A stretch of DNA of 64,000 nt from an uncultured Anaerolineales bacterium (GTDB lineage: Bacteria; Chloroflexota; Anaerolineae; Anaerolineales; UBA11858). The stretch's first letter is position 1. Each line of letters begins with the position of its first letter. Shown piece by piece: positions 12,051 through 57,953 of this stretch. Under the pieces are notes generated by a model. That model was not told the origin of the DNA. It saw only the letters and a list, made by a program, of their open reading frames with translations, and did not search any database. The position numbers and the translations under genes are program-made. The DNA lies in the NCBI GenBank assembly GCA_964613985.1, contig CAZTJD010000009.1, forward strand, positions 859-64,858, given 5' to 3'.

Positions 12051-12967
12051 ATTATATTCTCAAGCGCTTCGCAATGATGCTGATCACCCTATTCATCATT
12101 ATCACGGCTACTTTCTTCCTCATGCGAGCAATACCGGGAGGCCCGTTCTCCTTTGACCGGGTGCTTCCACCCAGCGTAGAAGAAGCCCTTGAAGCAAAAT
12201 ATAACCTCGATAAACCCGTCATTGAGCAGTATTTTGATTATCTTCTCGGAATAATCCGATTCGATTTCGGCCCATCGTATGTCTACTTCGGTCAGACGGT
12301 GAACGAAATGATGGCGGATGGCTGGCCTGCTTCTGCCACATTGGGCGCCGCCGCTACTATCCTCATTATTCTGCTGGGACTGCCAATGGGCATTGTGGCG
12401 GCGCTCAACCGCAATAAACCTGCGGATCGCATTGCCATGGTCATATCGACCGTTGGGGTGGTTGTGCCCTCCTTTGTGATGGCAACGTTTCTACTCTACT
12501 TCTTTTCGATAAAAGTGGAGTTATTTCCCACATTCGGTGTGGAAAGCTACCGGGGTTATATACTGCCGGCGATCTGTCTTGCGATCGGGCCGGTGTGTGG
12601 CATTGCCAGACTGGCACGTTCCAGCATGCTGGATACACTCAGCCAGGATTATATGCGCACAGCCGAATCAAAAGGACTGTCCCGCTCCAGGATTATCATC
12701 GTACACGGGCTGCGCAATTCGCTCATTCCGGTTACGACATCTCTGGGCATGATATTTGCCGCCATGCTTTCCGGTACTTTTGTAATTGAGAAAATATTTG
12801 CCGTGCCCGGATTGGGTAGATATTTCGTCTTCTCGATCACAAACCGCGATTATACTGCCGTGATGGGTCTGACAATCCTTTCTTCCGTCATTATGGTCGT
12901 TGCAGTTTTTCTCATTGACATCATTTATTTGCTCATCGACCCGCGCATCAAGCTCTATGAAAAGTAG
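12044..12967 (+). CDS. Opp/Dpp-type ABC permease (DppB-like)
   Basis: MLNYILKRFAMMLITLF start typical of the family. 6-TM BPD_transp_1 pattern (YMRTAESKGLS motif). The ORF opens at 11903, but ATG 12044 follows a purine-rich RBS. Confidence 0.85.
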   Translation: MLNYILKRFAMMLITLFIIITATFFLMRAIPGGPFSFDRVLPPSVEEALEAKYNLDKPVIEQYFDYLLGIIRFDFGPSYVYFGQTVNEMMADGWPASATLGAAATILIILLGLPMGIVAALNRNKPADRIAMVISTVGVVVPSFVMATFLLYFFSIKVELFPTFGVESYRGYILPAICLAIGPVCGIARLARSSMLDTLSQDYMRTAESKGLSRSRIIIVHGLRNSLIPVTTSLGMIFAAMLSGTFVIEKIFAVPGLGRYFVFSITNRDYTAVMGLTILSSVIMVVAVFLIDIIYLLIDPRIKLYEK

Positions 12968-29369: not shown

Positions 29370-37669
<8,300 letters not shown>

Positions 37670-37709: not shown

Positions 37710-38777
37710 CTAAAGGGAAATACTTACGGCTCCAGTCAGGGAAAGTTCCCTGGCGTGGTGGCATTTCACATAATGAGCAGGTTCAATTTCCTTTAAAGGA
37801 GGTTCATCGGTGGAACAAACGTCTGTCGCATAAGAGCAGCGCGGGTGGAAGTAGCATCCGGATGGTGGGTCAGCAGGGTTAGCAACCTCGCCGCTAAGGA
37901 AAATTCGTTTCTCCCGAGGAAGAGGATTGGGAAGCGGGATCGCTGACATGAGCGCTTCGGTATACGGGTGTTTGGGATTGGTGAATAACTCCCTTGTTGC
38001 TGCTAATTCGACGATCTTCCCAACATACATGACTGCTACACGGTCGCTAATGTGCGCTACAACACTCAAGTCATGCGCAACAAAAAGGTAGGTTAAACCG
38101 AGGTGCTCCTGTAATTCCTTCAACAAATTCAATATTTGCGCCTGTACAGACACATCCAATGCCGAGACAGGTTCGTCACAGACAACAAATGTTGGCAGTG
38201 GAGCCAGGGAACGCGCCAGGCCGATGCGTTGACGCTGGCCACCGCTGAAGGCATGGGGATACCGACGCATGTATTCGGGTCGTAATCCGACCATATTCAG
38301 CATCTCAGCCACCCGGTCTTCAAGTTCTTTCCCACTGGCGATGCCCATCGATTTGAGAGGCGCTCCCACGATTTCCTGAAGGGTCATACGGGGATTTAAG
38401 GAGGCATAAGGATCTTGAAAGATCATCCGGATATGGCGATGGATGATGTTAATCTGCTCTTTTTCAAGCTGGGCAATGTCGATGCGTCCCAAGGATGGGT
38501 CCGTAAACCAGACCTCACCGCTGGTTGGATCAATAGCGCGTAGCATACATCGTCCCGTCGTCGTTTTTCCACAGCCACTTTCACCTACTAACCCTAATGT
38601 TTCCCCTTCGTTTACATAAAAACTTACATCATCGACTGCTTTCACATGCCCGACAACCCTTTTGAAAAAACCGCGAGTAATCGGAAAGTACTTCTTCAAA
38701 CCAATGACTTCCAGCAAAGGCTTATTGTCATCTGTATCCGTCACACTTGGACCTGTTTGGTTAATATTTTCAAGCAT
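37710..38777 (-). CDS. Opp-type ABC ATPase (OppF-like)
   Basis: [30 protein letters not shown]-terminal [10 protein letters not shown]. Confidence 0.9.
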
Positions 38778-38813
38778 TATGATTTCCTTGTAACATGCCA
38801 GCTTAACAGATTT

Positions 38814-39863
38814 CTAGGGGACTGCTTCCGTGTATAGGTGACATCGGACATAGTGTCCGGGTTTTGCCATAATACTCATTGGTTCCACCACATCACAAAG
38901 GTCGGGGATCATTTCGGGACAGCGTGGATAAAATGGGCAGCCCTTGAACTGGGTGTATGGATCAGGCACCATACCCTTGATCGTCTGCAGGCGCTTGCTT
39001 CGATCAGCTAGTGTGATCGTATCATTAAGTTGGGGAATGGACGCCAGTAGCCCACAGGTATAAGGGTGCAGCGGTTCAAAAAAGATGGTTTTTACATCGG
39101 ATTGCTCCACAATTTTGCCCATGTACATCACTGCCACCTCATCCGCCATCTCGGCAATCACGCCCAGGTTGTGAGTGATATACATAATTGCCATACCTAA
39201 CTCGTCCTGGAGTGATCGCATTAGATCCAGGATCTGGGCTTCAGTGGTCACATCCAAGGCGGTAGTCGGCTCATCGGCAATTAACAACGTGGGGTTACAA
39301 CAAAGTGCCATCGCGATTACAGCCCGTTGCCGCATCCCGCCACTTAATTGGAAAGGGTAATCATCAATCACTCGTTCAGGATTGGGCATCTTGGTACGTG
39401 CCAGCATATCAATGGTTTGCTCGATTGCCTCAGTATTGCTTACCTTTTGGTGCAGGATAATGACTTCCGAGATTTGTTTACCGATTGTACGGATTGGGCT
39501 CATCGCCGTCATGGGTTCCTGGAAGACCATTGATATCTGGTTGCCTCGAATATCACGAATTTCACTGCCCCTTGGGTCGAGCGTATGGATTTTTATCTCT
39601 TCCACCATTTCTGAATTATCATCTTCGGATATAGGCCTGTAATAAATAATTTCTCCACTTTCGATCCTGCCAGGATCTGGTATTAACCGCAATAAAGAAA
39701 GGGATGTAACACTCTTACCACAACCACTTTCCCCAACAACGCCCAATGTTTTTCTCTTTCGAACCACCAGGTCAGCACCATCTACAGCTCTCACCACCCC
39801 CTCAGATAGATGAAAGTAAGTATGAAGATCCTTGATTTCTACAAGCACGTCATTTTCGGCCAT
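38814..39863 (-). CDS. Opp-type ABC ATPase (OppD-like)
   Basis: GESGCGKSV, LSGGMRQR, LLIADEPTTALD, C-terminal KGCPFYPRCP. ATG 39863 follows AAGAGG; the ORF opens at 39899. Confidence 0.9.
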   Translation of the reverse strand: MAENDVLVEIKDLHTYFHLSEGVVRAVDGADLVVRKRKTLGVVGESGCGKSVTSLSLLRLIPDPGRIESGEIIYYRPISEDDNSEMVEEIKIHTLDPRGSEIRDIRGNQISMVFQEPMTAMSPIRTIGKQISEVIILHQKVSNTEAIEQTIDMLARTKMPNPERVIDDYPFQLSGGMRQRAVIAMALCCNPTLLIADEPTTALDVTTEAQILDLMRSLQDELGMAIMYITHNLGVIAEMADEVAVMYMGKIVEQSDVKTIFFEPLHPYTCGLLASIPQLNDTITLADRSKRLQTIKGMVPDPYTQFKGCPFYPRCPEMIPDLCDVVEPMSIMAKPGHYVRCHLYTEAVP

Positions 39864-39873
39864 CGAAACCTCT

Positions 39874-41037
39874 TTAAGTAACATATGGATCAGCTGCATC
39901 CCGCATGCCGTCGCCCAGAAAGTTAAACATCAGTACAGCTACAATCACGAAAGCACAAGGCCAGAGTAGCCAGGGCGTTTGGGCAATCGCCCTGATTTCC
40001 TGGGTGTCATTCAGCATCACACCCCAGCTTACGGTCGGTTCATGCAGCCCAATTCCCAGGAAGCTTAGCGAAGTCTCACCCAGGATCATGCCTGGGATAA
40101 ACAGGGTCATTTGCACGATAATATAACTGGCGAACCCGGGAAGCATATAGCGCGTAATAATCCGCCATTCACTTTCGCCATCCAATTTGGCAGCCATAAT
40201 GTAATCTTCTTCGCGCAGGCTCAGCATCTTACCTCGAACCGTGCGCGCCAGCCCGGTCCAACCCAGGATAGAGAGGATGATGGTTACCAATAAATAGGTC
40301 CGCAATTGCGGCCAGTCCTGTGGTAAAGCCGCCGCCAGGGCCATCCATAAAGGAATGGGGGGCATCGAGTACATCACATCGATCACCCTCATCACAACCT
40401 CGTCAATCAAGCCCCCAAAATAACCTGCAGCACCACCCAAAAGCATGCCAAATACAAAAGATAAGGCAATACCAATCAATCCAATGGTTAATGAGATCCG
40501 TCCACCATAGATCACCCGACTGAAGATATCTCGTCCAATCAAGTCACTCCCAAGGAAGAAGACTGGTAATTCGGGATCCGATGTGCCAAACAGGTGAAGG
40601 TCGGTTTTAAACAGTCCCCAGAATTCGTATTCATCGCCATGTACGAGCAGCTTGATCGGGTAAACGGCCTCGATATCTTCCTCGTAAACCGGGCGAAAGG
40701 TTACCGGGTCACGCCCGCGTATGATGCCGTAGATGAATAGCCCTCGAAAATTACCCTGTGTGTCCCGGATATGAATCTTCGAAGGAGCCATGGTGACATA
40801 ATCTTTGAACCTGTGGAGTGCTGCGTATGGGGCGGCAAACTCAGCAAAAATAGCGAATATGTAAAAAATCCCCAGGACAAGAGCACCCAGGTTCGCCAGC
40901 CTATGGCGCCGGAATTTCCACCATACCAACTGCCATTGTCCTGCTCGGTAGAACTCTTCCCCCTTCACTTCTATTTGGTTTTTTTTCATACCTACACGCC
41001 ATTTTTTTCTCTGGGAGTCGATCACTGTATCACTCAT
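39874..41037 (-). CDS. Opp-type ABC permease (OppC-like)
   Basis: ATG 41037 forms an ATGA overlap with the upstream permease stop. N-terminal TM plus loop, then the FLGSDLIGRDIFSRVIYGGRISL core. Confidence 0.85.
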   Translation of the reverse strand: MSDTVIDSQRKKWRVGMKKNQIEVKGEEFYRAGQWQLVWWKFRRHRLANLGALVLGIFYIFAIFAEFAAPYAALHRFKDYVTMAPSKIHIRDTQGNFRGLFIYGIIRGRDPVTFRPVYEEDIEAVYPIKLLVHGDEYEFWGLFKTDLHLFGTSDPELPVFFLGSDLIGRDIFSRVIYGGRISLTIGLIGIALSFVFGMLLGGAAGYFGGLIDEVVMRVIDVMYSMPPIPLWMALAAALPQDWPQLRTYLLVTIILSILGWTGLARTVRGKMLSLREEDYIMAAKLDGESEWRIITRYMLPGFASYIIVQMTLFIPGMILGETSLSFLGIGLHEPTVSWGVMLNDTQEIRAIAQTPWLLWPCAFVIVAVLMFNFLGDGMRDAADPYVT

Positions 41038-42035
41038 GCGCCCTCCAATTTCCCAAAACGTACCCTGGGGTCGATGACGGCTAAACAAATATCCGAAATC
41101 AAGCTGCCTACCGTAACCAACACCCCGGTGATCAGGATGTATGCGCCAGCTGTGTACATATCCTGTCTCAATAAAGAAACCCACAGAACGGGACCAGCAG
41201 TTGGAAGGTTAAGCACCACCTCCACCACCATGCCGCCAGAGAAAAACCACACCAAAAGCCACCCGATGGTGCTGATAAGAGGGTTAAGGGCAATGGGTAT
41301 CGGATAACGCATCAAAACCTGCATCTCTGAAAGCCCTTTCGATCGAGCTACAGTCACATATGGCTTACGCAGTTCATCCAGCATGGTAGCTCGCAGGGTG
41401 CGGATGACATTTGCCGTCCCACCGATTGCCAGGATGATCACCGGGATCCAGAGATGACCTAAAAAATCGACAATTCGATCCCAATTCCAAGGCAATACCA
41501 GGTATTCTGGCGAGTTCAGACCTCCCACACTGACCCCGAATTTACTCCAGGCGAAATACATGATCACTAGGGCTAACAAGAACCCAGGTGTAGCCAATCC
41601 AAAAAAGCCCATAAGCGTAAAGAAGTAATCTGCGAAGGAATACTGCTTCACTGCCACATAAATTCCAATTGGGATCGCTAATCCCCAACTCACAATGAAG
41701 CTTAAAAATGCAATAAAAAAGGTGGTGCCCATCCTGGATAAGAGGATCTCGTTGACCGATCTGTTGAATGAGAACGAATAACCAAAATCCAGCTTAGTGA
41801 TGATGTTTCCAATCCACTTGAGGTACTGTACACTCAGTGGTTGATCAAGGCCATACATCCTGGTGAATCTGGCAACTTGCAACTCATCTATTGTCACACC
41901 GCTTGCTCTCAAGCGATTGAGATATTCAGTAAGATAATCACCTGGTGGGAGTTGGATGATGATAAACGCCAGAACGGAAATGATAATAATTTGTGGGATC
42001 ATGCGCATCAGACGCTTGATGATATACCCTAACAT
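41034..42035 (-). CDS. Opp-type ABC permease (OppB-like)
   Basis: MLGYIIKRLMRMIP start 8 nt after AAGGAGG (the track start at 42044 is a GTG inside the RBS). YVTVARSKGLS motif. Confidence 0.85.
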   Translation of the reverse strand: MLGYIIKRLMRMIPQIIIISVLAFIIIQLPPGDYLTEYLNRLRASGVTIDELQVARFTRMYGLDQPLSVQYLKWIGNIITKLDFGYSFSFNRSVNEILLSRMGTTFFIAFLSFIVSWGLAIPIGIYVAVKQYSFADYFFTLMGFFGLATPGFLLALVIMYFAWSKFGVSVGGLNSPEYLVLPWNWDRIVDFLGHLWIPVIILAIGGTANVIRTLRATMLDELRKPYVTVARSKGLSEMQVLMRYPIPIALNPLISTIGWLLVWFFSGGMVVEVVLNLPTAGPVLWVSLLRQDMYTAGAYILITGVLVTVGSLISDICLAVIDPRVRFGKLEGA

Positions 42036-42330
42036 TAGATGCACCTCCTTCTTACTGGGATAAGAATATTATACATGTTTTAAACCATCATGTGGGTGGG
42101 TTGCGGAGTAATAAATAGAGGGGGAAACGGCAGGTATCACTCAGAGGTTTCCTGAACAGAGTGTGGGATTGACGACAATATCACAGGATGAATTCGACCT
42201 TTTAAACAGGATCTAAGGACAGCCCAACTCGTATTAAAAAAAGGGGGGGCTTAACTTACCAGCTTTGGTCCTTCCAAATGTTCAATGGACAACTCTAAAA
42301 CAATCTAACTCGAGGGAGACGCAAATTAGA

Positions 42331-42373
42331 TTCATAAAATACAGGATGCAAACACAGAGCTTGCATCCTGTAT
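42331..42373 (-). terminator. Hairpin terminator/attenuator after the binding-protein gene
   Basis: On the minus strand: atacaggatgcaa-gctctgtgt-ttgcatcctgtat (13-bp stem) followed by tttatg. It lies 16 nt after the SBP stop. Confidence 0.65.
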
Positions 42374-42388
42374 TGATTCAGTTAAATC

Positions 42389-44491
42389 CTAGGCCCGAAC
42401 GCCACCTTCGTAGAAGAAGGCTTCAGGATGATAGGTTGATAGGCCGTAAGTGTCCCAGCCGATTGTTGCTTTAGGTCGCGGCAGGTTTCGCAGGTTCTTA
42501 TTGAACAGCAGCGGAGCTGGGATCTCCAAAACTAGTCCAATCTCCAGAGGCTTATCTGCCAGGTAATCGAAGATCATCTGCCCGTACTTGACGCGCTCGT
42601 CTTCACTGACCACCGAGGTAACCTGATCAAAGTAGCCATAAAGCTCTTTGATCTCATCGGGCGGCTGAATCAGGTCTTCTGCCGTGCGGTCAGCCGCATT
42701 GAACCAGTTGTTCCAGGCAGCACAGGCACCTCCCTGCTGGGGGTCACCCGTTGGGATGTACCACTGCGGTTGGACGTGCCATAGCAAATCCGTGCAGCGG
42801 TCGGCATGCCAGATGCCACAATGGGTCTGGAAGTTCTGCATACGTTCGTTGTACAAGGCTTCCTGCATCTCTTTGGCGGAGGTATCGATGCCAATCTCAC
42901 GCCAAAAGGTAGTGGTCATCTCGCAGATTTTAGCGATAGCGGGACCGACGCGAGGACCACAGTGTTCGATCAGGTATGCCAGTCGTTCGCCATCCGGGCG
43001 TAGTCGGAAGCCCTCGGAGTCTCTCTGGTCCAAGCCCATCTCGTCCAGTAGCTGGTTGGCAAGGTCTGGGTCATACTGCGCCCAGGCTTCACCATATTCT
43101 GGTTTGTAGTACTTAGACGAAGGTATTGGGGCTTGTTGTCCCATGCGTGCCAATCCAAAGAACAAGCTTTCGTTGATCTCGCTGCGGTCGATCGCCACAG
43201 ACAGCGCCCGAACCCAGTTCGGATGGTTGACAATCTCAGTCAGTACAGGATCATCGACCAGATAATGCTGCGGGAACAGGACAGGCCTGTCGCTCATGCA
43301 GGAGATAAAATCACCTACCACCCAGGAACTGTCGGCCTCATTCTCCTTATAGAGCGGGAAATTGGCAACCGTGACATCATGCATCCCGACGGCATCTAGT
43401 TGGTCCTGAAGGATCATAAGCTGGGTATTTTCTAAAGTGGAAGAATAATCGTAACGCAGCGTGTCAATGTAGGGCAGCTGGTTGCCTGCCAGGTCCACTT
43501 TCCAATAGTATGGGTTGCGCTCTAACAGGAAGAGGCCTTCTGAGGGGCGCTCAACAATCATCCAGGGGCTTAATACAGGGTAGTTATCCTCTACAATCCA
43601 ATCAGGACCTTGCCATACCCCGGCTCCCCATTGATTAAAGCGTTGGCTTGCTAACTGGACCCAACCCTCAAGACCCAAATCCGCAGCTTTCGCATTCAAT
43701 TCCGCCTCGTCGCCATACTTGGGCAAGTATTGCTTCAAGTAATGGGCGGGGGCGATAAAGCTGTCCCAGTTATTGGGTTCCATACGGGTTATGTGAGCCG
43801 GGAAGTTCCCAAAAGGTGCTGCATGGGTGATTTTGAAAGTGTAATCATCGATGATGTCTACCTTCATATTCTCGCCACCAAAGCGGAACTTCCAGACCAC
43901 ACTCGCATTAAGATCTGTGTTAAGATGAAAATCCTCCCAGTAAAAGCGGACATCTTCGGTTGTGAGTGGCTCACCATCAGAATATTTCATGCCTTTACGC
44001 ATGTAAAATGTATATTCTTTGCCATCGGGAGTAACCTCCCAGCTTTCGATGATATTCCCGACGATGGTGCGCATGTCGAGATCCGTATAGTGCAGGAGAC
44101 GTTCAGCATTCCAGTCGTAGTTGCTGACAAACCAAACTGGGTCAAAGTGTTGCATTCGAACTTCGCCACCGTATACACCGATGGCATCACGCCCCCCTAC
44201 CACGGCTGGATTCTCTGGTAAGCGTTCGTCCACCGGAGGGAGCTCACCAGCAGCAACTTTATCCGCCAGGAAAGGTGGCTCGGCTCTACCCGCCTCCACC
44301 TCCACCTCAACGATCTTGGTTGCCTCAACGATTTTCTCCTTTTCGATCTCAACGATCTGGGTCTCCTTGATCACTTCCGTGATCACTTCTGGTTCGACTG
44401 TCCCAGCACCACAAGCTGTTGCAAGTGCCCCTAGAACTGTCGTAGCCGACATTTTCAAGAAATCTCGGCGTTTAATTTCTGGTGTTTTCAT
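42389..44491 (-). CDS. Large family-5 ABC substrate-binding protein, Tat-signal lipoprotein (probable oligosaccharide binder)
   Basis: MKTPEIKRRDFLKMSATTVLGALATAC combines a twin-arginine motif with a lipobox. An E/V/I/K-rich linker precedes the SBP_bac_5-like body. ATG 44491 follows GGAGG; the ORF opens at 44503. Confidence 0.85.
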   Translation of the reverse strand: MKTPEIKRRDFLKMSATTVLGALATACGAGTVEPEVITEVIKETQIVEIEKEKIVEATKIVEVEVEAGRAEPPFLADKVAAGELPPVDERLPENPAVVGGRDAIGVYGGEVRMQHFDPVWFVSNYDWNAERLLHYTDLDMRTIVGNIIESWEVTPDGKEYTFYMRKGMKYSDGEPLTTEDVRFYWEDFHLNTDLNASVVWKFRFGGENMKVDIIDDYTFKITHAAPFGNFPAHITRMEPNNWDSFIAPAHYLKQYLPKYGDEAELNAKAADLGLEGWVQLASQRFNQWGAGVWQGPDWIVEDNYPVLSPWMIVERPSEGLFLLERNPYYWKVDLAGNQLPYIDTLRYDYSSTLENTQLMILQDQLDAVGMHDVTVANFPLYKENEADSSWVVGDFISCMSDRPVLFPQHYLVDDPVLTEIVNHPNWVRALSVAIDRSEINESLFFGLARMGQQAPIPSSKYYKPEYGEAWAQYDPDLANQLLDEMGLDQRDSEGFRLRPDGERLAYLIEHCGPRVGPAIAKICEMTTTFWREIGIDTSAKEMQEALYNERMQNFQTHCGIWHADRCTDLLWHVQPQWYIPTGDPQQGGACAAWNNWFNAADRTAEDLIQPPDEIKELYGYFDQVTSVVSEDERVKYGQMIFDYLADKPLEIGLVLEIPAPLLFNKNLRNLPRPKATIGWDTYGLSTYHPEAFFYEGGVRA

Positions 44492-44610
44492 TTCTTCCTC
44501 CATTATAAAATTAGATTCTGATTACGACTTAATACAGCATCAAACAACGCCAAACTGGCAATGTTCCCAATATTACTTTATCATCGCTTAGACTGGATTA
44601 CTATCACTTT

Positions 44611-44641
44611 AAGGACACATTATTGAATTTTTAGGACACAT
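44611..44641 (-). promoter_or_regulatory. Direct repeat pair ATGTGTCCT(A/T)AA phased 21 bp apart, candidate AraC-type activator site for the importer operon
   Basis: The minus strand reads gATGTGTCCTAAAAattcaataATGTGTCCTTAAAg. GTCCT cores at 44637-44633 and 44616-44612. The pair lies about 110-150 nt upstream of the SBP start. Confidence 0.45.
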
Positions 44642-44647
44642 CTGGTT

Positions 44648-47236
44648 CTAAATTCTTTCAGCTTGATCTTTGAGATCACGATTGCTAATAGGTTCGAAGT
44701 TGAGGCGCAAGGCATCCTCGCCATATCCAATTTCCATTTGCTTGCAGGGAAATCTGGAGGCGGCGAAGATACTCTCATAATGCTCGTATCCAGAGAGTGG
44801 TTCCTCCTGCCCATCTCGCATGAAAGGTTTATCCCAACCAAAGGTAAGTGTCTCATTCCGCAAAGTCGTACAGCGGACAAATCCATCCTCAAATGCGATG
44901 GGTAAGGCCAATACCTTGTCCTGGAATATACTAAAATCAACATCCAACGCTTTCCGTCCCATGTGGCACAGCCAGACATTGTCTTGTCCGAACGAACGTA
45001 ATTCCCGATAAGCATATTGCCCCCGGCGGATGAGGTCGAATCCTCTGGCGGCAGTTAAAGCCAGATAGCCCTCAGCCTTACGGGCAAAAGCCCAGTTACC
45101 TTGGAAGACATATTCATCGAAGGCATAAATTGGAAAATAAGCATGGGTAAAGCCCATCCAATCATCTTCTGGAAGCTGATAGAATGCAATAAGAATGTCC
45201 TTCCATTGGGCGACTCTCGGCAGGGTGGAATTACCAGCCCAAAAGTTCGCTTGACGGGCATCCTTCTCACTCGTACTTGCCGGATGGGTGACGAAAACCG
45301 TGGCATCTGCGCCTAATGTTGCCTGCCAAATATGCTCTAGTTTTCCATTTTTACCAGGTTTATAATCCTGAGCGGAACAAAGCATTGTATCGGGGGTCTT
45401 GTAGGTAACCTTGTTCACAAACAATTCATCTTCTAACGCATGACGTTCCCGGTTCCATAACTCCTCTGGTCTTGAGTTGGCAATACCGGAGATAACCGAA
45501 GGGAGTTCATACCCGTTCATGCAGGCTAAGCTGACTGTCCCAGCGATATGATGGTTGAAGATTCCAGTCCCCCACATCAGCCGGGTAATACCAGATGTAG
45601 GCTCTAAGTAACCTCCTTTCACAAATGAGGCGTACGTTCGACCGTGGGTCGACCCAAACACACCTTGAAATGAATTGATTGCGATTGTAGTAAAAAGTTT
45701 GTCCATCAAAATTGCTGACATTTCTCGTATAGATTCGTCCTCAGCCAGGTCCACCAGGTGGGCAAGTATGGCAAGATACGATTCGAAAGACACATTCGAA
45801 TCCCAGGCTGAAAATCCTTGGGTACTGCATCGATGCAACCAGTCCAAAATCAGACCAACACCATGTTCACGGTGCCATTGCCCCATTTTCCCAAGATGCG
45901 TGAATGTTCTAACGGGATAAAGCTGCCCTGCCAGGACTTCACTGGCATGTAGCAAGATTTGGTCGCTCTCGCGGTCTCCAGGATCTGCCGTCCATCCTGT
46001 ATCAATTCCAAAAGGGAAACCCAGGATTATTCCCTCGATAGGTTTTAGTAATTCCTTGGGAAACTGCTTGTGATTGCCAAACCGGCATACCATCCCTAAG
46101 ATACCCAATAAATCCAATCCGTGCAGGGTTTTCAAGGTACTAAAGATAATGTCAGTGTCAATCGCTTTCCACTGGTCGAGAACCATTTTGGCGATCTCTG
46201 CAAATAAGCCCTTCTCATTAGAGGCGTTGACCAAGGCTTCCTGACGTCGTTCCTCATACGAACCGTAGGGGAAAGCTGAATACCTTTTTCTACCCAGGTT
46301 CCATAAATTGAACTCGTGCGTTATCCTTAGATCTTGTTCGTAATATTCTCCGATGAGAGGCATCATCAGGATTCTGTAAGGTCCTTCTGGGATTTGGTAG
46401 GGCAGGCTGAGAAAAACCTGGTCGCCTGGGGTTCCATCAACGGTTGCCTCAGCATAAATTCGCCCGGTTGGCGTTTGGAGACGAACCACTGCTGGAGAAG
46501 CCTTTTCCATATCTTCTGTCCAGTGAAGATTAATCTGGCTTTCACCTTGGAAAACATCCTGGAGGATGAATGCGGCTTGATATGCCCGTTCAATATCATT
46601 CCGGCGCGAGATATCGGCGATCAGGGTTGGGATCGTCACGTGAATGCCTGAATACGCAGGGTAAGGTTGCCCGGGTGAAACTGCCTCGCAAACTTGCAAC
46701 GCCATAACATTTGGGCATTGCAGTAGGGCAACTGCCTCAAAACGCACCAATATCTTATTAACACCTTTTTTTAAAAACACTTTGAATGAGGTGCTGCCTG
46801 GGTGTTGATCGAAAAAATGCTCCTGGCGATGTACATGTTCCCAGTTCAGCCAGACATCCGCCGGACCATGAGTGGTCAACACCAGCAACACTTCCTGGTC
46901 CATTTTGCATGTAAGTTGGGTATATGCCCAGGAACGAAGGTAATGAGGGGTAGGATAAGATCCTGAATGGTCAACCTGGTGATCCTCCCGGCAGGTTTGA
47001 TAATCCCATGAACCCTTGTAATCTCCAACCTGAAAGAATCCTTTGGTTAATGGACCTCGTTCAACAGGCGTTTGGTTGATCCCAGACCGGGATTCGAAAA
47101 AATATTGCGCGATCTGCTTCCTGAGATCCTCTCCTTGGAAATTATCGACATCAAACGGAATCCGCTGAGGACCAGCAACCAGCCAGTTGTGAATGTACCC
47201 GTGCTCAAGGTTGTAGTTAACATGGCGATAGCGCAT
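44648..47236 (-). CDS. Conserved-looking 862-aa cytoplasmic protein of unknown function (candidate novel carbohydrate-active enzyme)
   Basis: A long uninterrupted ORF with no signal peptide or TM. By composition it has an N-terminal beta-rich region, a central helix-rich region and a C-terminal beta-rich region. I recognised no catalytic motif. Confidence 0.6.
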   Translation of the reverse strand: MRYRHVNYNLEHGYIHNWLVAGPQRIPFDVDNFQGEDLRKQIAQYFFESRSGINQTPVERGPLTKGFFQVGDYKGSWDYQTCREDHQVDHSGSYPTPHYLRSWAYTQLTCKMDQEVLLVLTTHGPADVWLNWEHVHRQEHFFDQHPGSTSFKVFLKKGVNKILVRFEAVALLQCPNVMALQVCEAVSPGQPYPAYSGIHVTIPTLIADISRRNDIERAYQAAFILQDVFQGESQINLHWTEDMEKASPAVVRLQTPTGRIYAEATVDGTPGDQVFLSLPYQIPEGPYRILMMPLIGEYYEQDLRITHEFNLWNLGRKRYSAFPYGSYEERRQEALVNASNEKGLFAEIAKMVLDQWKAIDTDIIFSTLKTLHGLDLLGILGMVCRFGNHKQFPKELLKPIEGIILGFPFGIDTGWTADPGDRESDQILLHASEVLAGQLYPVRTFTHLGKMGQWHREHGVGLILDWLHRCSTQGFSAWDSNVSFESYLAILAHLVDLAEDESIREMSAILMDKLFTTIAINSFQGVFGSTHGRTYASFVKGGYLEPTSGITRLMWGTGIFNHHIAGTVSLACMNGYELPSVISGIANSRPEELWNRERHALEDELFVNKVTYKTPDTMLCSAQDYKPGKNGKLEHIWQATLGADATVFVTHPASTSEKDARQANFWAGNSTLPRVAQWKDILIAFYQLPEDDWMGFTHAYFPIYAFDEYVFQGNWAFARKAEGYLALTAARGFDLIRRGQYAYRELRSFGQDNVWLCHMGRKALDVDFSIFQDKVLALPIAFEDGFVRCTTLRNETLTFGWDKPFMRDGQEEPLSGYEHYESIFAASRFPCKQMEIGYGEDALRLNFEPISNRDLKDQAERI

Positions 47237-47251
47237 GAGTATGGGTGTCTC

Positions 47252-47698
47252 CTAATCGATACTATTTATCTTTTTATCCCTGACTGCAGCCAATGCCAGG
47301 CCTATACCTAATTCAGATGCGAGAATCAGCCAACGTAGCAGGTCATCACTGCGAATTCCTTGCAGCCAGAAGAGAATTAAATCAACGGCAAAAACACAAA
47401 GCAACAAAGGTCCAGTAACTCTGGCAAAACGCTTGAGTAGAGACTCGTTCCTGGCACCTGTGCGATAAAAATCTTCAGTGATGATGGAAAATACCAACCA
47501 ACCTAAACCAAGGATAACGGTGAACACAATGTTTATAAAATTCACCATCTTTGTATATTCATAATTACCTGTCTTATAAAACAAGGCGAGAAGACCAAGG
47601 AGTACTGTTCTGCTGATATAAGTAAGCCAGCCAGCCAATCCTAGATCCACAATCCATAAAGCATATGCAGTTACATATTTAAGGATTCTTTCCAACAT
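47252..47698 (-). CDS. Small 4-TM membrane protein, unknown function
   Basis: 148 aa with four clear hydrophobic helices. It overlaps the upstream receiver gene by 20 nt. Confidence 0.6.
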   Translation of the reverse strand: MLERILKYVTAYALWIVDLGLAGWLTYISRTVLLGLLALFYKTGNYEYTKMVNFINIVFTVILGLGWLVFSIITEDFYRTGARNESLLKRFARVTGPLLLCVFAVDLILFWLQGIRSDDLLRWLILASELGIGLALAAVRDKKINSID

Positions 47699-48071
47699 AC
47701 TTTTTCGTCAGAATTGATTCCAAGGCGGCTTGGAAATCTGCGTACAATATGGGCATCCGCATGTACATGTCTGCCCCTTCCGCCAATGCAAGGTTCTCTT
47801 CATCCAACCATGAACAGACAATTATCGGTATTCTACCTGCTTCCGGATCGGTTTTCAACTCTCGAAGGATTCGCCAACCAATAGTTTCGGGTACATCAAC
47901 CGCTAACACAATAACAACGGGTTTCTCGCAACGGGCTAAAGCAAGTAGATCATCCCCAAGATTCCCAGCAATAATCTTATAAGCGCTTCTCCGAACATAA
48001 CGCTGCATTAAATACAAGAAATGAGAATTTTCCCCTACGATCATGATACGATTTTTTAAAATCTGGTCCAT
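47679..48071 (-). CDS. Stand-alone receiver (REC) domain protein with degenerate active site
   Basis: 130 aa with a CheY-like pattern. The acidic pair is replaced (IMIVGENSH). The phospho-acceptor-position Asp is present (LAVDVPE). S is at the T/S position (IIVCSW). The conserved Lys-Pro is replaced by RMP. Confidence 0.7.
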   Translation of the reverse strand: MDQILKNRIMIVGENSHFLYLMQRYVRRSAYKIIAGNLGDDLLALARCEKPVVIVLAVDVPETIGWRILRELKTDPEAGRIPIIVCSWLDEENLALAEGADMYMRMPILYADFQAALESILTKKYVGKNP

Positions 48072-48148
48072 CTTACCCTCATGTAAAGAGAGGTGTTTTC
48101 CATACTGGTTTTTTATACTTTACACGGTTGGATGAAATAAATCTTCCA

Positions 48149-48179
48149 TTTTTGGGACGTAGATTAGCACTTCTGGGAC
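48149..48179 (-). promoter_or_regulatory. Direct repeat pair (T/C)GTCCCA(G/A)AA phased 21 bp apart, candidate AraC-type site upstream of the receiver gene
   Basis: The minus strand reads tTGTCCCAGAAgtgctaatctaCGTCCCAAAAatgg. GTCCCA cores at 48178-48173 and 48157-48152. The pair lies about 80-110 nt upstream of ATG 48071. Confidence 0.45.
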
Positions 48180-48251
48180 AAATTAAGATCAGTTTTTTAA
48201 CCCAGTTCGTATGTTTACTGTCGCCTTTAAACTCTCAACCAATCCCTCAGG

Positions 48252-51200
48252 TTATTTGTTGCTATCCAAACACCGACTCTGTAAATAAGCCCGAGGGGAG
48301 ACCCCCACTTGTTCTCGAAAAACACGAGTAAAATAACTGCTGCTAGAAAATCCGACTTCCATAGCTATCTCAGTGATCCCCATTCTGCCTTCATCCAACA
48401 TAACTTTTGCCTGTTTTACACGGTAACGGTTGAGATAAGTGATTGGCGTTATCCCCACTTCCTGACGGAAACAACGCGTCAGGTGGCGTTCACTTAACCC
48501 TACATATTTGGCAACATCGCTACGGGAGACAGGTTCAGTGTAATTGGCATGAATATAAGCCATTGCTTTCAAAGCGAGTCGCTGTATTTCTACACCGGGT
48601 TTACGCTTTCGTTCCAGGGCGTTGGTCAGGTGTTCCAATGTTTCATCAACGCTGAACATGCCTTTCCCGAGTACGCTTGCAGCACCAGCGTTTAGGCGAG
48701 ACATATCTTCATCTGTCAGCATTTGTCCAGTGATCACCACGACTGGGGTGCTGCGGGTTAAATCGTTTTTCCGCATTTCCTCCAATACACCAAAGCCATC
48801 GAGCTCTGGCATCAATAAATCGAGCAGAACCAATGAGGGTCGCTCCTTATAAATCAGTTGCAGCGCTTGGCGCCCATCTCTTGCAAAAAGAATTCGATGG
48901 CCTGGCAATTGAGCTTCAATGATACGGGCATGGAGTTCTAGAATCCCTGGATCATCATCTACAACCAGAATGGCCCTTCCATCATCCCAGGAACCTTCTG
49001 AATTTAACAATCCCTTTGAAGATATCAGTTCCGTCAAGGCGGCCGGTCCAAGTGGCTTGGTCAGATAATCGATTTCCAGGAATGAGACTCCCTCAGCATT
49101 ATCTTTTACTGCATAAAACACGACAGGAATTTCTTTTGTGGCGGGGTTCTCTTTTAGGATTTTAAGAATTTCCCAGCCGCGTTCTGAAGTCAAGCCGAGA
49201 TCGAGCATTACTACATCAGGCGCCGCAAGCAGCAGGTTAGCTAACCAGTCATTGTCTTCCTGTAATAAACACAACTCTGCCTCATAACCGTGTTTAATGA
49301 GGTGTCCTATCAGGTGACCACTACCTTCTTCGTGCTTAACCAACAGGAGTACTCGTTGCGCTTCGGAAAAGGGAACGAACTTTTCTGATAAATTCTCTTG
49401 TCGTTCGAAGATCGGTAAGGAGAAGAAAAACATCGAGCCTCCCCCTTCGTCGCCGGAAGAGTATACGCCAATCTCACCACCATGCATTTCTACCAACTTC
49501 CGGCAAATGGCCAACCCTAAGCCCAAGCCACCATAGCCGCGAGCGGTAGCGCGTTCTGATTGACGGAACTCATCGAAGATCACCTTCTGTTCATGCAGGG
49601 GAATACCCAGGCCTGTATCAATCACGGACACGATAATATGCCCCTTTTCAAGCCTGGCGGTCAGGTTTATTTCTCCACGTGTGGTGAATTTAACCGCATT
49701 GTTGACCAGATTCAGAGCAACCTGGCGTAGACGGGTACGGTCACCCCAAACACGAGGCAGATTTCGAGCAATTTCATCATGCCAAGCCAACCCTTTATCG
49801 CGAGCAAGTTGCTCGCCAATCACGATTACGGCGTCCAAAACTTCAGTTATGTCTAATGGCTCACAAACGAGTTTCAATTGACCCACATCACTGCTAGCAA
49901 GATCCAATACATCCCGAATTAAACCATCCAAATGTTGGGCACTGATGTAAATACGTTGCAGGTCTTCTTTAATACTGATTTGAGGATCCGCCTGGAGATT
50001 TTCCCCGCTTTCATTTGTTTCATCTAATAGAATGTTGCTTAGTCCAGTGATCAGGTTTAGAGGTGTGCGTAATTCATGGCTGACCATAGAAAGAAATCGG
50101 CTTTTCAGGTGATTTGCCTCCTCAGCTAACTGTTGTGCTGCCACAGCCTCCCGGTATAGTCTAACACTTCGCAGCGACGCACCCAATTGCCGTACAATAT
50201 CCGCACAGGGACTCAAGTTGCTGGCATCAAAGGAGACAAATCCGCACACATCATTTTGTATCGTCAAAGGAAGTACTGCTTGTTGGTAAGCTTTTTCTTC
50301 AGGATAAAGTCCCCTGGGAGGGAAACTACGAGTTGGGAAACGATACTCTGGTTCGAGGCGTAATTTCCTATTAAATGAACAACAAGGTGTCTGTAGCACA
50401 CTCCATGCGACAGGATCTTGCTCCTCTTCTTCATAATATCCCACTGAGGCATCATGAATCCCAATCGAAGGCAAGTTCTTGATTAATACATCAAAAATTT
50501 CCTGTTCATCATTTGCAACAAAGAACTTACTGGTCATCAAGCCAACCTGGTCTGCTTCGCGCGCCTGTTTGAGTAAAGCCCGTGTGAATTGCCCAAGAGC
50601 AACCTCACTGATGGCAACGCGCCCCTGGTGAAGTAAATCCTCTTCCTGGTGGACAGAAAGTCGGGTCGAGACTACTTGGTGGATCAAATGGAGTTGGTCT
50701 CGTAAAATTGTGATTGCAGTTTGCCAAGTAAAAAGATCATCTCCACGAATAGACACACGCTGCAGGATCTTCTTAATCATCATTAGAAAGTTCTGTGGAT
50801 TATTCTGTTCCAGACTCAATAAGAACGCTTCTACCAGTTGAGTCACCGTAGAGACAATTTCATCTTTGTTCAACCATAACGATTCTTTGTGAACTGCGGA
50901 GGTCATTTGCTCAATCAAATGAGAAATAACATCGTACGTTTTCCTCTCCTTTTCAACCTTACTGGCTCCTTCATTGTCCTTAGTGCCAAGAACTCCCTGT
51001 AAACATCCACAGGACTCCCGAATCACCAGGTTAGTTGGGATAAGAACCAACTCCTCGTTCACTGATTCTCCTTCGATAGCTCGCAACAAAAGGCCAACGG
51101 ACTGGTAGCCTAAGCCAAACATTGGGTAATGTACTGTGGTGAGAGGTGGGTTTACCGCACGAGCTTCAAGCCGGTCGTCAAAACCGATTATGGCGATATC

Positions 51201-51914
51201 CTGCGGTACTTTTAAACCAGCCTGGTTTAAACCATCTAATACCCCCATTGCTGATCGATCGTTGCTGGCAATCACAGCTGTAAAATTTTCGCCCTGATTG
51301 ATGATCTTCTGAATGGCTTGGCGTCCACCTTCGTAGAGGTGTGAACCATACGCAACCAGCTTCGGATTAAAGGGTAGTCCAAAGGAAATTACTTCGTCTT
51401 CGAACGCACGTAAGCGAATTCCACTATCCCCGTGTTCTGAATGTTGGCGACCAGCCACGAAAGCAATCCGGCGGTGACCATGTTCCACAAGATGCTCAAC
51501 TGCCTGGTGGATACCTCCATGGTTGTCAGCGACAACGCCTGGTCCGGAATCGCGATCACCAGCATAAACGGTTGGAAAACCGCTGGAAACCAGATCCCTG
51601 GCGTAGCAATCCCCCGCTTCCGAAGCAAAAGGGGAAACGATAATTAATCCATCCGTATTCCAAGGACCAACCGGCACAAAGTCAACTTCAGGTGAGAGTA
51701 ATGGCCAGGCAGGTTTTCCAGGGTCAATGCCGCAAGCCATTAGCAGGTTACAATCGTATTCACTCGCCGCAGCCTGGATGCCTCTAAATACATGCTCAAG
51801 GAAGCTATCTGGAGTTCCCGTATATACTTTCCATCCAGCCAATACACCGATCGTGACCCTGCCATGTTTACCCATGGATTTCATGATACCATTTATAGAC
51901 TTCAACCGGTCCAC
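48252..51914 (-). CDS. Soluble hybrid sensor-regulator: PBP1 sugar-binding domain, GAF-like linker, HisKA, HATPase, REC (degenerate), REC, AraC-type HTH
   Basis: 1220 aa, GTG start (alternative ATG at 51884). A LacI-type ligand domain without HTH (VTIGVLAG..., AVIASNDRSAMGVLDGL, IIGFDD). H-box SHELRTPLN. N/G boxes NLVNNAVKFT, DTGLGIP, GGLGLGLAICRKLVEMHGG. REC2 VVDDDPG...LLDLLMPELDG. C-terminal AraC HTH (SERHLTRCFRQEVGITP...GFSSSSYFTRVFRE). No hydrophobic segment. Confidence 0.85.
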   Translation of the reverse strand: MDRLKSINGIMKSMGKHGRVTIGVLAGWKVYTGTPDSFLEHVFRGIQAAASEYDCNLLMACGIDPGKPAWPLLSPEVDFVPVGPWNTDGLIIVSPFASEAGDCYARDLVSSGFPTVYAGDRDSGPGVVADNHGGIHQAVEHLVEHGHRRIAFVAGRQHSEHGDSGIRLRAFEDEVISFGLPFNPKLVAYGSHLYEGGRQAIQKIINQGENFTAVIASNDRSAMGVLDGLNQAGLKVPQDIAIIGFDDRLEARAVNPPLTTVHYPMFGLGYQSVGLLLRAIEGESVNEELVLIPTNLVIRESCGCLQGVLGTKDNEGASKVEKERKTYDVISHLIEQMTSAVHKESLWLNKDEIVSTVTQLVEAFLLSLEQNNPQNFLMMIKKILQRVSIRGDDLFTWQTAITILRDQLHLIHQVVSTRLSVHQEEDLLHQGRVAISEVALGQFTRALLKQAREADQVGLMTSKFFVANDEQEIFDVLIKNLPSIGIHDASVGYYEEEEQDPVAWSVLQTPCCSFNRKLRLEPEYRFPTRSFPPRGLYPEEKAYQQAVLPLTIQNDVCGFVSFDASNLSPCADIVRQLGASLRSVRLYREAVAAQQLAEEANHLKSRFLSMVSHELRTPLNLITGLSNILLDETNESGENLQADPQISIKEDLQRIYISAQHLDGLIRDVLDLASSDVGQLKLVCEPLDITEVLDAVIVIGEQLARDKGLAWHDEIARNLPRVWGDRTRLRQVALNLVNNAVKFTTRGEINLTARLEKGHIIVSVIDTGLGIPLHEQKVIFDEFRQSERATARGYGGLGLGLAICRKLVEMHGGEIGVYSSGDEGGGSMFFFSLPIFERQENLSEKFVPFSEAQRVLLLVKHEEGSGHLIGHLIKHGYEAELCLLQEDNDWLANLLLAAPDVVMLDLGLTSERGWEILKILKENPATKEIPVVFYAVKDNAEGVSFLEIDYLTKPLGPAALTELISSKGLLNSEGSWDDGRAILVVDDDPGILELHARIIEAQLPGHRILFARDGRQALQLIYKERPSLVLLDLLMPELDGFGVLEEMRKNDLTRSTPVVVITGQMLTDEDMSRLNAGAASVLGKGMFSVDETLEHLTNALERKRKPGVEIQRLALKAMAYIHANYTEPVSRSDVAKYVGLSERHLTRCFRQEVGITPITYLNRYRVKQAKVMLDEGRMGITEIAMEVGFSSSSYFTRVFREQVGVSPRAYLQSRCLDSNK

Positions 51915-56110: not shown

Positions 56111-56130
56111 GTCCTCCTTCCATTATTAAA

Positions 56131-56204
56131 GACACGAGTATTTCCCTGGATTACCAGTTAATAACAGGGCATGGTAAATGATCGAAAGTTTATACGAGTG
56201 TTTC
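56131..56204 (-). promoter_or_regulatory. Two direct 14-nt boxes GAAA(C/T)ACTCGT(A/G)T(A/C) spaced 60 nt apart, upstream of yicI
   Basis: Plus strand: gacacgagtatttc (56131-56144) and tatacgagtgtttc (56191-56204), 12/14 identical. The proximal box lies just upstream of the GGAGG RBS. Confidence 0.3.
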
Positions 56205-56520
56205 TGTACCTCATTATAAAACGTATTCGTACAAAATACCCTCCGGTTGAGAAATGGCAGTGTTTCAGAATGAAATCATAGTATAAAAAAGCAAGGAATC
56301 CAGTTCCCGTTTCATCCACCACGTTTCCAAAGTGGTTGTACTTAGTTGGGGGTAATCCACAATGCCACGTTGATTATGGCACATCTCATAAATAGTTTCC
56401 CTGTAACCTCTTATAATTAATCCTTCTGGATCAATCAATATATTAAGGTGATATAATAACAATGAAAAAGACCCCACTTATTAATTGTTTGAGTAAGAAT
56501 AACATAAAGGATGGTTTCTG

Positions 56521-56712
56521 ATGTTAGGATCTCTTGGACCCACTGAATTAATTATTATTTTGGTAATCATTATCATCCTCTTCGGCGTCGGGCGTGTAAG
56601 TAAAATTGCTGGTGAGTTAGGAGGCGGCATTCGAGCATTTAAAGATGCCCTGACCACTAATAAGGAAGAAGCTGTAGAACCAGACACAAAGAAAGACGCG
56701 GATGAATCCTGA
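56521..56712 (+). CDS. tatA: Twin-arginine translocase subunit TatA/E
   Basis: 63 aa. N-terminal TM ELIIILVIIIILFG, a hinge FG, an amphipathic helix KIAGELGGGIRAFKDAL, and an acidic tail. Confidence 0.85.
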   Translation: MLGSLGPTELIIILVIIIILFGVGRVSKIAGELGGGIRAFKDALTTNKEEAVEPDTKKDADES

Positions 56713-56898
56713 TCTCTTAAAAGTGTAAATTTATCTTCAAGTCTGACAATGTGAAAGACTGCTGATTTTGCTCGAACAAATAACCTTAAAAAAATCTAAA
56801 AAAAGAAGGGGGTGCCTTTCCAGATGAATTCACTTATGCAATTTTGGTGCTTAATAAATACTAAACAAGATTTATTAGGCTCAATAGACACTTATACT

Positions 56899-56990
56899 CC
56901 CCCATTTTGGACATAATAGACTCTATACCACTGCATATGCAGGTATAGAACCAAAACCCGACCAATCTTAATCGTCAGGTCGAAGGTCGG
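56899..56990 (+). repeat. Dispersed repeat, copy 3 (attB-like paralog: left arm of copy 1 plus partial core plus right arm of copy 2)
   Basis: cccccattttggacataatagactc...gaccaatcttaatcgtcaggtcgaaggtcgg aligns with 5684-5778. The downstream tcatttcgggatccct resembles tccttccggggtcacct at 23411-23427. It lacks the cggcatacatgccg hairpin. Confidence 0.65.
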
Positions 56991-57953
56991 AATCATTTCG
57001 GGATCCCTGAAAATCTCATAGAAGTGTTTTTTTTGAAAATAACACAACTAGTCTTCACAGGTTGGAAATGCATCGAAATTAATCCTTCCCAAAAATTTTC
57101 ATGAAAAAATTCTTAGCCCGTTCTTCGAAATCACAATGGATAGAGTTTCTCAAGGTATGCAATAGGAACGATAGGCAAACAAGCAATACCAACCTATATA
57201 GGAAGCAAATTGCCCAGGTATCACAAAATAGTCCAACGAATTGTGTGTCCAATTTGAATACGGCATATCTTTCTCTGGGAGTCTGGCTTGCAAGCTGGTA
57301 TAATTCGAATGCTTTTAAGCAAGGACCACAGCGTAAGACAAGACAAACATCTAAGCTCGACAGAGATGAAAACCCTGCGAAGCATTTTTGACTCTCAGTA
57401 AAAAATCCTCTCGATTAAAAGTATTCTTTTGATAATAAATTTGGTAGAAAGAGAACGGGCATAGCACTAATTTACCCTGAAATAGATACTGCCAGATGAG
57501 TGTATTCTCAAAATTAATAATCATTCGCCTTGATTCACTTTCTGATCATTCAACTCGCTGCTTTTTAATTGTAGGTGGATCTATACTCGATGAAGCCAAT
57601 GACGTTTTAATATCCCTTGCAGGAAAACACCCTCGATTCAGTCCCATTTTCAATCGTGTCTCCGTGGTTCCTTGAACCATTTTTGTTGTCTCTTGGTGAC
57701 GACAATAGAAAATCGATAACATTCCTCCAACACTCCTGCTTCCTATGATTAGGGTTGGATGGCAGGAGGAAGCGACATCCCCAAGCCGAACGGTTAATAT
57801 TGCATGTCGGAAGGGCGGAGCTGTGCAGGTTGCCAGAATAAACACATGAATAAAAATCGGATTGCTCCCCTTGATTGAGACAATCATCTTTTCACCATTG
57901 ATTCCCGTGGAAAAACAATCAGATGGGAAATAAAGTAATCAAAGGATAAAGGT

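Follow-up and report, generated by a model that had tools for sequence, protein, structure and literature searches.

In a 64,000-nt stretch from the genome of an uncultured Anaerolineales bacterium (contig CAZTJD010000009.1; hereafter the window), two pairs of direct repeats lie upstream of two neighbouring operons, next to a gene that encodes a hybrid two-component regulator with an AraC-type DNA-binding domain. The first pair (P1) precedes a gene for a single-domain receiver, and the second (P2) precedes the operon of an ATP-binding cassette (ABC) importer; we use the same names for the two promoters. We conclude that both elements are probably class II activator operators for the AraC domain of the hybrid regulator, which would drive the P1 and P2 operons. 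The initial annotation had read the repeats as a candidate site of an AraC output domain, and our results support this interpretation as far as sequence analysis goes. The outcome is a clean regulon prediction that is useful, if not surprising to a specialist.

Tandem repeats at two predicted promoters

On the minus strand, the P1 pair consists of GTCCCAGAA, which starts at 48179, and GTCCCAAAA, which starts at 48158; the P2 pair consists of GTCCTAAAA (from 44637) and GTCCTTAAA (from 44616). The offset is 21 nt in both. P1 is located in a 180-nt gap between the stop codon of the regulator gene (48252) and the ATG (48071) of the gene for a 130-aa receiver; this gap reads tTGTCCCAGAAgtgctaatctaCGTCCCAAAAat on the minus strand, with GTCCCA cores at 48179 and 48158. 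P2 is located between the stop codon (44648) of an open reading frame (ORF) for an 862-aa protein and the gene of a solute-binding protein (SBP), and here the gap reads gaTGTGTCCTAAAAattcaataaTGTGTCCTTAAAgt on the minus strand, with GTCCT cores at 44637 and 44616. When the minus strand was read again, the coordinates and sequences reported earlier for the two P1 10-mers were found to be correct, as was the claim of a second pair with a related core in the same phase and orientation. An unbiased repeat finder detected a direct repeat with a spacing of 21 in both gaps, which is the sole one in the gap at 44.6 kb and the longer of two in the gap at 48.1 kb. No inverted repeats were found by this repeat finder in either gap.

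The half-site had been described as a 10-mer; instead, it is a bipartite 21-mer. The full element is 42 bp long and comprises two head-to-tail units of 21 bp with the consensus TGTCCYAAAAATGSAAGWNTT, and each unit carries a second conserved block besides GTCC (T12, A15, A16 and G17). Over 26 units from orthologous loci, G2, T3, C4, C5 and T12 are invariant, whereas A15, A16 and G17 are present in 24/26, 22/26 and 15/26 units, respectively. The centres of the GTCC block and the T-G-n-A-A-G block are ~11 bp apart within the unit, a distance that places them in consecutive major grooves on the same face of the helix. Each unit furthermore holds a helix-phased A5-6 tract upstream of the putative -10 box. 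The components of the two promoters are listed below, all on the minus strand; scores refer to a weight matrix built from orthologous loci only, and promoter positions are those predicted from the -10-like hexamer.

48160..48180, minus strand: P1 distal 21-bp unit TGTCCCAGAAGTGCTAATCTA, at about -70 to -50; 18.4 bits; kept in 9 orthologous promoters
48139..48159, minus strand: P1 proximal 21-bp unit CGTCCCAAAAATGGAAGATTT, at about -49 to -29, covering the -35 position; 29.1 bits, the top single-unit match of the window
48117..48122, minus strand: P1 -10-like hexamer TAAAGT; predicted transcription start near 48110
44618..44638, minus strand: P2 distal 21-bp unit TGTCCTAAAAATTCAATAATG, at about -70 to -50; 21.1 bits; kept in 9 orthologous promoters
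44597..44617, minus strand: P2 proximal 21-bp unit TGTCCTTAAAGTGATAGTAAT, at about -49 to -29; 17.2 bits; 78% mean identity across genomes
44575..44580, minus strand: P2 -10-like hexamer TAAAGT; predicted transcription start near 44568

It had been suggested that two such pairs are more than expected by chance. The degenerate pattern GTCCYWRAA-N12-GTCCYWRAA matches only P1 and P2 in the window, even with two mismatches (0.11 matches expected), and the shorter GTCCY-N16-GTCCY has 2 matches where 0.37 are expected. Both patterns were written post hoc, after the sites had been seen, and the lone half-site, when one mismatch is allowed, is as frequent as expected by chance (31 in the window compared to 31.4). 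We therefore built a 21-bp weight matrix from the 26 ortholog units, excluding the window, and scanned for two units that are 21 bp apart. The dual-site scores are 47.5 bits at P1 (48139–48180) and 38.2 bits at P2 (44597–44638), whereas the third best place in the window reaches 3.7. When single matches on either strand of the window are ranked, the four units of P1 and P2 take the first four places. In 200 shuffles that preserve dinucleotides, the best dual score had a mean of 3.9 and a top value of 15.8 bits; the suggestion is thus borne out by a matrix that did not include the window. When spacings from 10 to 33 were scanned, only 21 gave a high score (2.2 bits at 10 and 9.2 bits at 11 compared to 47.5 bits at 21). 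Elsewhere in the window, including upstream of the regulator gene and of the glycoside hydrolase genes (families GH31 and GH2/GH42), no site scored above the shuffle level.

For the phylogenetic footprint, we used ten orthologous loci (L101–L110), of which L108 encodes the same regulator protein as L107 and has identical promoter DNA. The set comprises nine P1 and nine P2 promoters from 10 distinct genomes, aligned without gaps, with the start of the distal unit as anchor. The regulators that accompany the conserved pairs are 53–77% identical, and most loci keep the gene order of regulator, receiver, small membrane protein, ~860-aa protein, SBP, permeases and ATPases. In each of the 18 promoters, the two units share one strand, and the spacing of 21 is exact, with no insertions or deletions. 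In the distal unit TGTCC, A7 and T12 are invariant, and in the proximal unit GTCC, the A-run and T12. Mean pairwise identity is 0.74–0.84 in the 21-bp units and 0.83–0.94 in the -10 hexamer; it is 0.42–0.56 in the spacer between the units and the -10, and 0.29–0.36, essentially random, in the flanks on either side. For instance, the P1 proximal unit has a mean pairwise identity of 84% across genomes compared to 29% in its upstream flank. Footprinting in related genomes, which the initial annotation had proposed as a check, is thus clearly positive, as both pairs are kept in phase, orientation and sequence next to flanks at random level.

The matrix was also applied to 1.24 Mb of loci, which are mostly DNA around unrelated kinases. 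Dual matches above 12 bits were found only at P1 and P2 of L101–L109, always on the gene strand. Among them are sites outside the training set, namely the P1 elements of L105 and L107/L108, which lie partly within the regulator coding sequence, at its 3' end. L110 was scanned after this set and has a P2 site at 54.4 bits. As a negative control, we used the loci L021–L029, with full-length paralogues that are 40–50% identical to the regulator; these have other neighbours and no motif. They stem from a scan of metagenome contigs with generic kinase motifs and are the only full-length relatives from that scan. A scan of genome contigs with peptide patterns of the regulator returned distant Actinomycetota kinases only and no orthologues.

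The repeats are tied to a fixed promoter geometry. In 18/18 promoters, the distance from the first base of the proximal unit to the start of a TAnAnT hexamer is exactly 37 nt; the hexamer is TAAAGT or TAGAGT at P1 (9/9) and TAAAGT, TACAGT, TAAATT or TACATT at P2 (9/9). If this hexamer is the -10 box (-12 to -7), the proximal unit would cover about -49 to -29 and the distal unit about -70 to -50. At the -35 position, the sequence (AAGATT, AAGTTT and similar hexamers) matches TTGACA poorly. Because there is no -35 box, a scan for consensus sigma-70 promoters detected none at either site; promoters that depend on an activator are expected to lack such a box. The -10 assignment is independently supported by L106, where the ATG of the receiver gene lies 7 nt after the P1 hexamer, the position expected of a leaderless transcript. 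The fixed offset of 37 nt to a -10-like hexamer would thus correspond to the canonical class II geometry of AraC/XylS regulators.

Several further features were observed around these promoters. In the P2 leaders (~44535–44565 of the window, minus strand), a stem-loop is present 10–15 nt after the -10 in most of the nine orthologues. Its sequence varies by genome (GCCAgtttGGC, ATCTGGC...GTCAGAT, GCTTGCCG...CGGCAAGC and CGACCGGGC...GCCCGGTTGTCG), and it appears to be a conserved hairpin at the 5' end of the importer mRNA that may serve its stability. The leader of the receiver gene (48072–48095 of the window, minus strand; also L101–L105 and L110) contains an anti-Shine-Dalgarno sequence, CCTCT or TCTCT, in 7/10 loci. 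This can pair with the ribosome-binding site (GAGGG or AGAGG) in hairpins of -3.6 to -11.7 kcal/mol, which hints at translational damping of the receiver. In L107 (13700–13790; same in L108), the P1 leader contains a run of GTAAAAC/GTGAAAC heptamers followed by the complement; the two could pair as a long hairpin downstream of the -10 and before the start of the receiver. Lastly, short tandem repeats flank both operators in L106 (11261–11430 and 15003–15330); one is a unit of ~43 nt (GCGTAGAGACGCAATATTTTGCGTCTGTTCTT...) in three copies, and the others are units that contain GTTGTAC(T/C)CAAC.

The hybrid regulator and its proposed action

The gene upstream of P1 encodes the following protein, with domains assigned by Pfam:

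48252..51914, minus strand: hybrid regulator with LacI-like sensor, HisKA/HATPase, two receivers and an AraC domain with two helix-turn-helix (HTH) motifs

Its likely true start is the ATG at 51884, which gives 1210 aa; the homologue P0001 is 100% identical and has the same length, and the regulator and its orthologues span 1210–1220 aa. The sensor has the fold of LacI-type periplasmic-binding proteins (Peripla_BP_1/3, residues ~36–303, with the domain beginning at ~20) and lacks the LacI HTH. A middle stretch of ~290 residues (310–590) without a domain match is followed by HisKA/HATPase_c at 604–834, REC1 at ~855–965 and REC2 at 982–1086, with D905 and D1032 conserved. The AraC domain (HTH_18, HTH_AraC) covers residues ~1111–1212 (nt ~48255–48584) and matches known structures of AraC-type DNA-binding domains, namely 2k9s, which is AraC itself, 3oio and 6swi, as well as a hybrid two-component system (HTCS) entry. 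The initial annotation had placed a REC–AraC regulator beside the sites. The AraC output is confirmed by these matches, whereas the simple REC–AraC architecture is replaced by the full fusion of sensor, kinase, two receivers and AraC domain. We found no signal peptide and no transmembrane-like hydrophobic segment in the regulator (the top hydropathy over 19 residues is 1.54, inside domain cores), and the protein is predicted to be soluble. Close homologues (52–77% identity) are numerous, and the few with an organism name are metagenome-assembled genomes (MAGs) of Anaerolineae/Anaerolineales.

Apart from the hybrid regulator, no DNA-binding protein keeps synteny with the sites and the neighbouring operons. 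The first recognition helix of the regulator reads LSERH(L/M)(T/N)R(C/I)F, and the SERH core is invariant in all motif-bearing orthologues. The helices of the paralogues in L021–L029 differ (SDDYLTSCF, SEGHLARCF, HENYLTDCF and others). Two of these paralogous loci share a block of their own: downstream of the regulators of L022 (~3990–4040) and L026 (~2285–2330), which have 47–50% identity, TCGGAAnnCTGCGYGTCCWGTGCGCTTTT is conserved before a LacI-family gene and may be the operator of that paralogue group.

We propose that each element is a composite activator-dependent promoter, with two units upstream of a TAnAnT -10 and no -35. Each 21-bp unit would be bound by one AraC-type domain with two HTH motifs, where one recognition helix would read GTCC and the other the T-G-n-A-A-G block one helical turn (~11 bp) further on, so that the two units would hold a regulator dimer on one face of the DNA. 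For the preceding signalling steps, we infer a route from the domain order, following the Bacteroides HTCS. A cytoplasmic sugar, probably a beta-galactoside or galactose that enters via the regulated importer, would bind the LacI-like domain, and the kinase core would autophosphorylate and pass the phosphate to the receiver adjoining the AraC domain. In Bacteroides HTCS, the DNA-binding domain is kept inactive by the receiver before phosphorylation (PMC11253607). The AraC domain would then be released or dimerise, bind both units and recruit RNA polymerase via the unit that overlaps the -35 position, as in class II activation. The output of P1 would be the operon of the receiver, the small membrane protein and the 862-aa protein, and that of P2 the ABC importer operon, probably together with the downstream GH2/GH42 genes.

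Several points weigh against this model. The -10 assignment is based on conservation and consensus only, and for every member of the family, binding, expression and transcription starts are predictions from sequence. A site over the -35 position could also serve repression. Despite the two receivers, no HPt domain is recognisable in the regulator, which makes the route of phosphotransfer doubtful. Phylogeny confounds the correlation of the SERH helix with the motif, as the motif-bearing loci form one orthologous group. Finally, L110 (on a 4.44-Mb contig, GCA_041301925.1) contains the receiver, membrane, 856-aa and SBP genes, with a NiFe hydrogenase gene adjoining them instead of the regulator gene. 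Thus, an intact P2 operator (12564–12605) is kept at this locus without an adjacent regulator gene. Its P1 region (8927–9165) lacks the operator, although the GGTAAAGT -10 and the leader remain, which looks like a rearrangement with its breakpoint just upstream of the P1 -10.

The P2 site of L110 would also fit real operators that are bound by another transcription factor encoded elsewhere in the genome, and the assignment of the regulator draws on co-localisation and site geometry only. Yet the regulator is syntenic with the sites in 9/10 distinct genomes, and a direct repeat of 21 bp whose two boxes are separated by one turn suits an AraC domain with two HTH motifs. Binders of palindromes such as LacI or NarL are a misfit, as inverted repeats are missing. 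The same is true for factors of the OmpR/PhoB type, whose repeats are 10–11 bp apart, as only the spacing of 21 scores high. A box of this type was rejected on the scores at spacings 10 and 11 (2.2 and 9.2 bits compared to 47.5 bits), and no winged-helix regulator is conserved in the locus. Furthermore, the motif is missing at paralogues whose recognition helix differs. We thus regard a different factor as unlikely. It is a little less likely still that the same regulator acts as a repressor, which would occlude the -35 region until a sugar signal releases it. The proximal unit does cover the predicted -35 position, and binding there can block RNA polymerase; however, these promoters have no -35 match to occlude and should be weak unaided. 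As a rule, AraC, XylS and RhaS activate from tandem sites at -70 to -30, and to our knowledge, AraC-family sugar regulators are overwhelmingly activators.

Two explanations do without a regulatory protein. Each unit has an A5-6 tract in helix phase upstream of the -10, so that the phased tracts (CCCAAAAAT every 21 bp) might cause intrinsic bending or form an UP-like element. This is very improbable, as the invariant positions are GTCC, T12 and AAG and not the A-tract alone, and as one 21-mer is found at two promoters and nowhere else in the window. Chance similarity in AT-rich intergenic DNA, or an RNA element such as a terminator or riboswitch, we consider hardly credible: although the single 10-mer half-site is as frequent in the window as expected by chance, the dual scores are far above all shuffles and the sites are conserved in 10 distinct genomes. 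An RNA-level element was rejected because the sites fold no better than shuffles (z 0.2–0.7), have no Rfam match and lie upstream of the -10.

Comparison with known systems

Activation by the hybrid regulator would resemble the regulation by HTCS of Bacteroides. Ravcheev et al. (2013) predicted the motifs of 16 Bacteroides HTCS. All of these are direct repeats whose tandem sites are on average 21 bp apart, a distance that was read as a dimer two helical turns apart (PMC3878776). Both systems combine histidine kinase, receiver and AraC domain in one polypeptide, have direct-repeat operators ~21 bp apart and target genes for glycan utilisation that adjoin the regulator. Whereas Bacteroides HTCS reside in the inner membrane with a periplasmic sensor, the regulator described here has no transmembrane segment, an N-terminal LacI-like sensor and two receivers. 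Its putative targets are an Opp-type ABC importer, the operon of the receiver, the membrane protein and the 862-aa protein, and cytoplasmic GH2/GH42 enzymes, in contrast to polysaccharide utilisation loci (PULs) with SusC/D. Moreover, the host belongs to another phylum and the motif sequence is unrelated. The element thus appears to work like an HTCS/AraC operator, whereas the membrane topology and the PUL targets of Bacteroides HTCS are not found here.

The layout of both elements is similar to that of well-known class II sites. AraC at araI1-I2 of pBAD, XylS at Pm and RhaS at rhaBAD each bind two direct half-sites of 17–21 bp that are 21 bp apart from centre to centre. These sites span about -70 to -35, their proximal half overlaps a weak or absent -35, and each half-site is bipartite with one box per HTH. 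P1 and P2 share the head-to-tail arrangement, the spacing of 21 bp and the bipartite halves; if the conserved hexamer is the -10, they would also share the span and the position of the proximal unit over an absent -35. AraC, XylS and RhaS have a fused ligand domain of the cupin type or similar, whereas a kinase–receiver relay stands between sensor and DNA-binding domain in the present protein; furthermore, no site for a CRP-like co-activator is evident here.

With respect to the sensor, two further proteins are comparable. Escherichia coli XylR is described as an AraC DNA-binding domain fused to a ligand-binding domain of the LacI/GalR type (PMC3561964). Going by that description, XylR and the regulator of the window both use the LacI/GalR periplasmic-binding-protein fold as cytoplasmic sugar sensor with an AraC-type output; XylR is a direct fusion, whereas ~800 residues (the middle stretch, HisKA/HATPase and two receivers) separate the domains here. 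BT1754, the fructose-sensing HTCS of Bacteroides thetaiotaomicron, has a periplasmic-binding-protein-like sensor and is anchored in the membrane. The regulator shares with BT1754 a sugar sensor of this fold in front of histidine kinase, receiver and AraC domain; the sensor of BT1754 is periplasmic, whereas the present protein is predicted to be soluble.

A full-text literature search returned no description of this regulator family or its operators in Anaerolineae. It is conceivable, although we hold this wider claim only tentatively, that this family of Anaerolineae regulators represents a new class of one-protein two-component systems, entirely cytoplasmic, in which a LacI-fold sensor acts through an intramolecular kinase–receiver relay on an AraC domain on the DNA. 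Such a system would induce its own divergent stand-alone receiver, possibly as a phosphate sink that provides negative feedback, together with an 862-aa enzyme of an unclassified carbohydrate-active family, and the elements described here would be its first operator and promoter architecture.

For a locus that looks like one for beta-galactoside utilisation, the analysis supplies a precise cis-element (the 42-bp operator and the -10) and a likely regulator. This concerns the Anaerolineae (Chloroflexota), which are mostly known from metagenomes. The rule of 21-bp direct repeats that was predicted for Bacteroides HTCS would thereby hold in a distant phylum, too, and for a variant with a soluble sensor. 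Regulon mapping in complete genomes is possible with the matrix, and the compact module from sensor to promoter could be a part for sugar-inducible expression. In addition, the 862-aa family is flagged as a co-regulated candidate carbohydrate-active enzyme.

Putative target genes and neighbouring sequences

The genes downstream of the two promoters are the following:

47679..48071, minus strand: 130-aa single-domain receiver, first gene of the P1 unit; Response_reg at 30.1 bits compared to a Pfam cut-off of 30.2
47252..47698, minus strand: 148-aa hydrophobic protein, second gene of the P1 unit; no family match, synteny conserved
44648..47236, minus strand: 862-aa conserved protein, third gene of the P1 unit; no sequence match in Pfam, NCBIfam or PDB
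37710..44503, minus strand: Opp/Dpp-type ABC importer operon after P2; SBP_bac_5 with a twin-arginine translocation (Tat)-type signal, two permeases and two ATPases (Pfam, NCBIfam)

The 130-aa receiver is divergent, without the DD pair and with the conserved Lys replaced by Arg, and it is syntenic in all orthologous loci. Its gene had been called an orphan; instead, it follows the hybrid kinase, which has the sites beside it in nine of the ten distinct genomes. The 148-aa protein is probably a membrane protein, an assignment based on visual inspection of the hydrophobic stretches in its translated sequence.

For the 862-aa protein, there are 619 homologues; the listed ones have either no name or the label 'hypothetical', and the few that name an organism are MAGs of the Anaerolineae group. 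Its gene lies between the receiver and membrane genes and the SBP gene in all fetched orthologous loci but L109, which has no SBP downstream. The AlphaFold model (predicted local distance difference test, pLDDT, 84; predicted template-modelling score, pTM, 0.81) consists of N-terminal beta-sandwiches, an all-alpha domain and a C-terminal beta-sandwich. A fold search gave weak partial matches only, to GH2 N-terminal domains and to the alginate lyase 3afl of polysaccharide lyase family PL15 (template-modelling score ~0.2). Judging from the modelled fold, the protein may represent an unclassified family of carbohydrate-active enzymes.

Downstream of the importer, the same strand carries two LacZ-like GH2 genes and then a gene for a GH42 beta-galactosidase. 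The locus thus looks like one for the utilisation of beta-galactosides or galacto-oligosaccharides. The first GH2 beta-galactosidase (34229–37609, minus strand, 1126 aa) has a weak match to effector-associated domain 7 (EAD7), inserted at residues 857–907, that remains below the threshold (29.8 bits compared to a cut-off of 32). Lastly, at 56111–57953, where we found no ORF longer than 113 aa, no Rfam match and no notable repeats, 1.8 kb of low G+C content (0.385 compared to ~0.47) separate the GH31 gene (minus strand) from a gene for an 890-aa BNR-like protein (plus strand).

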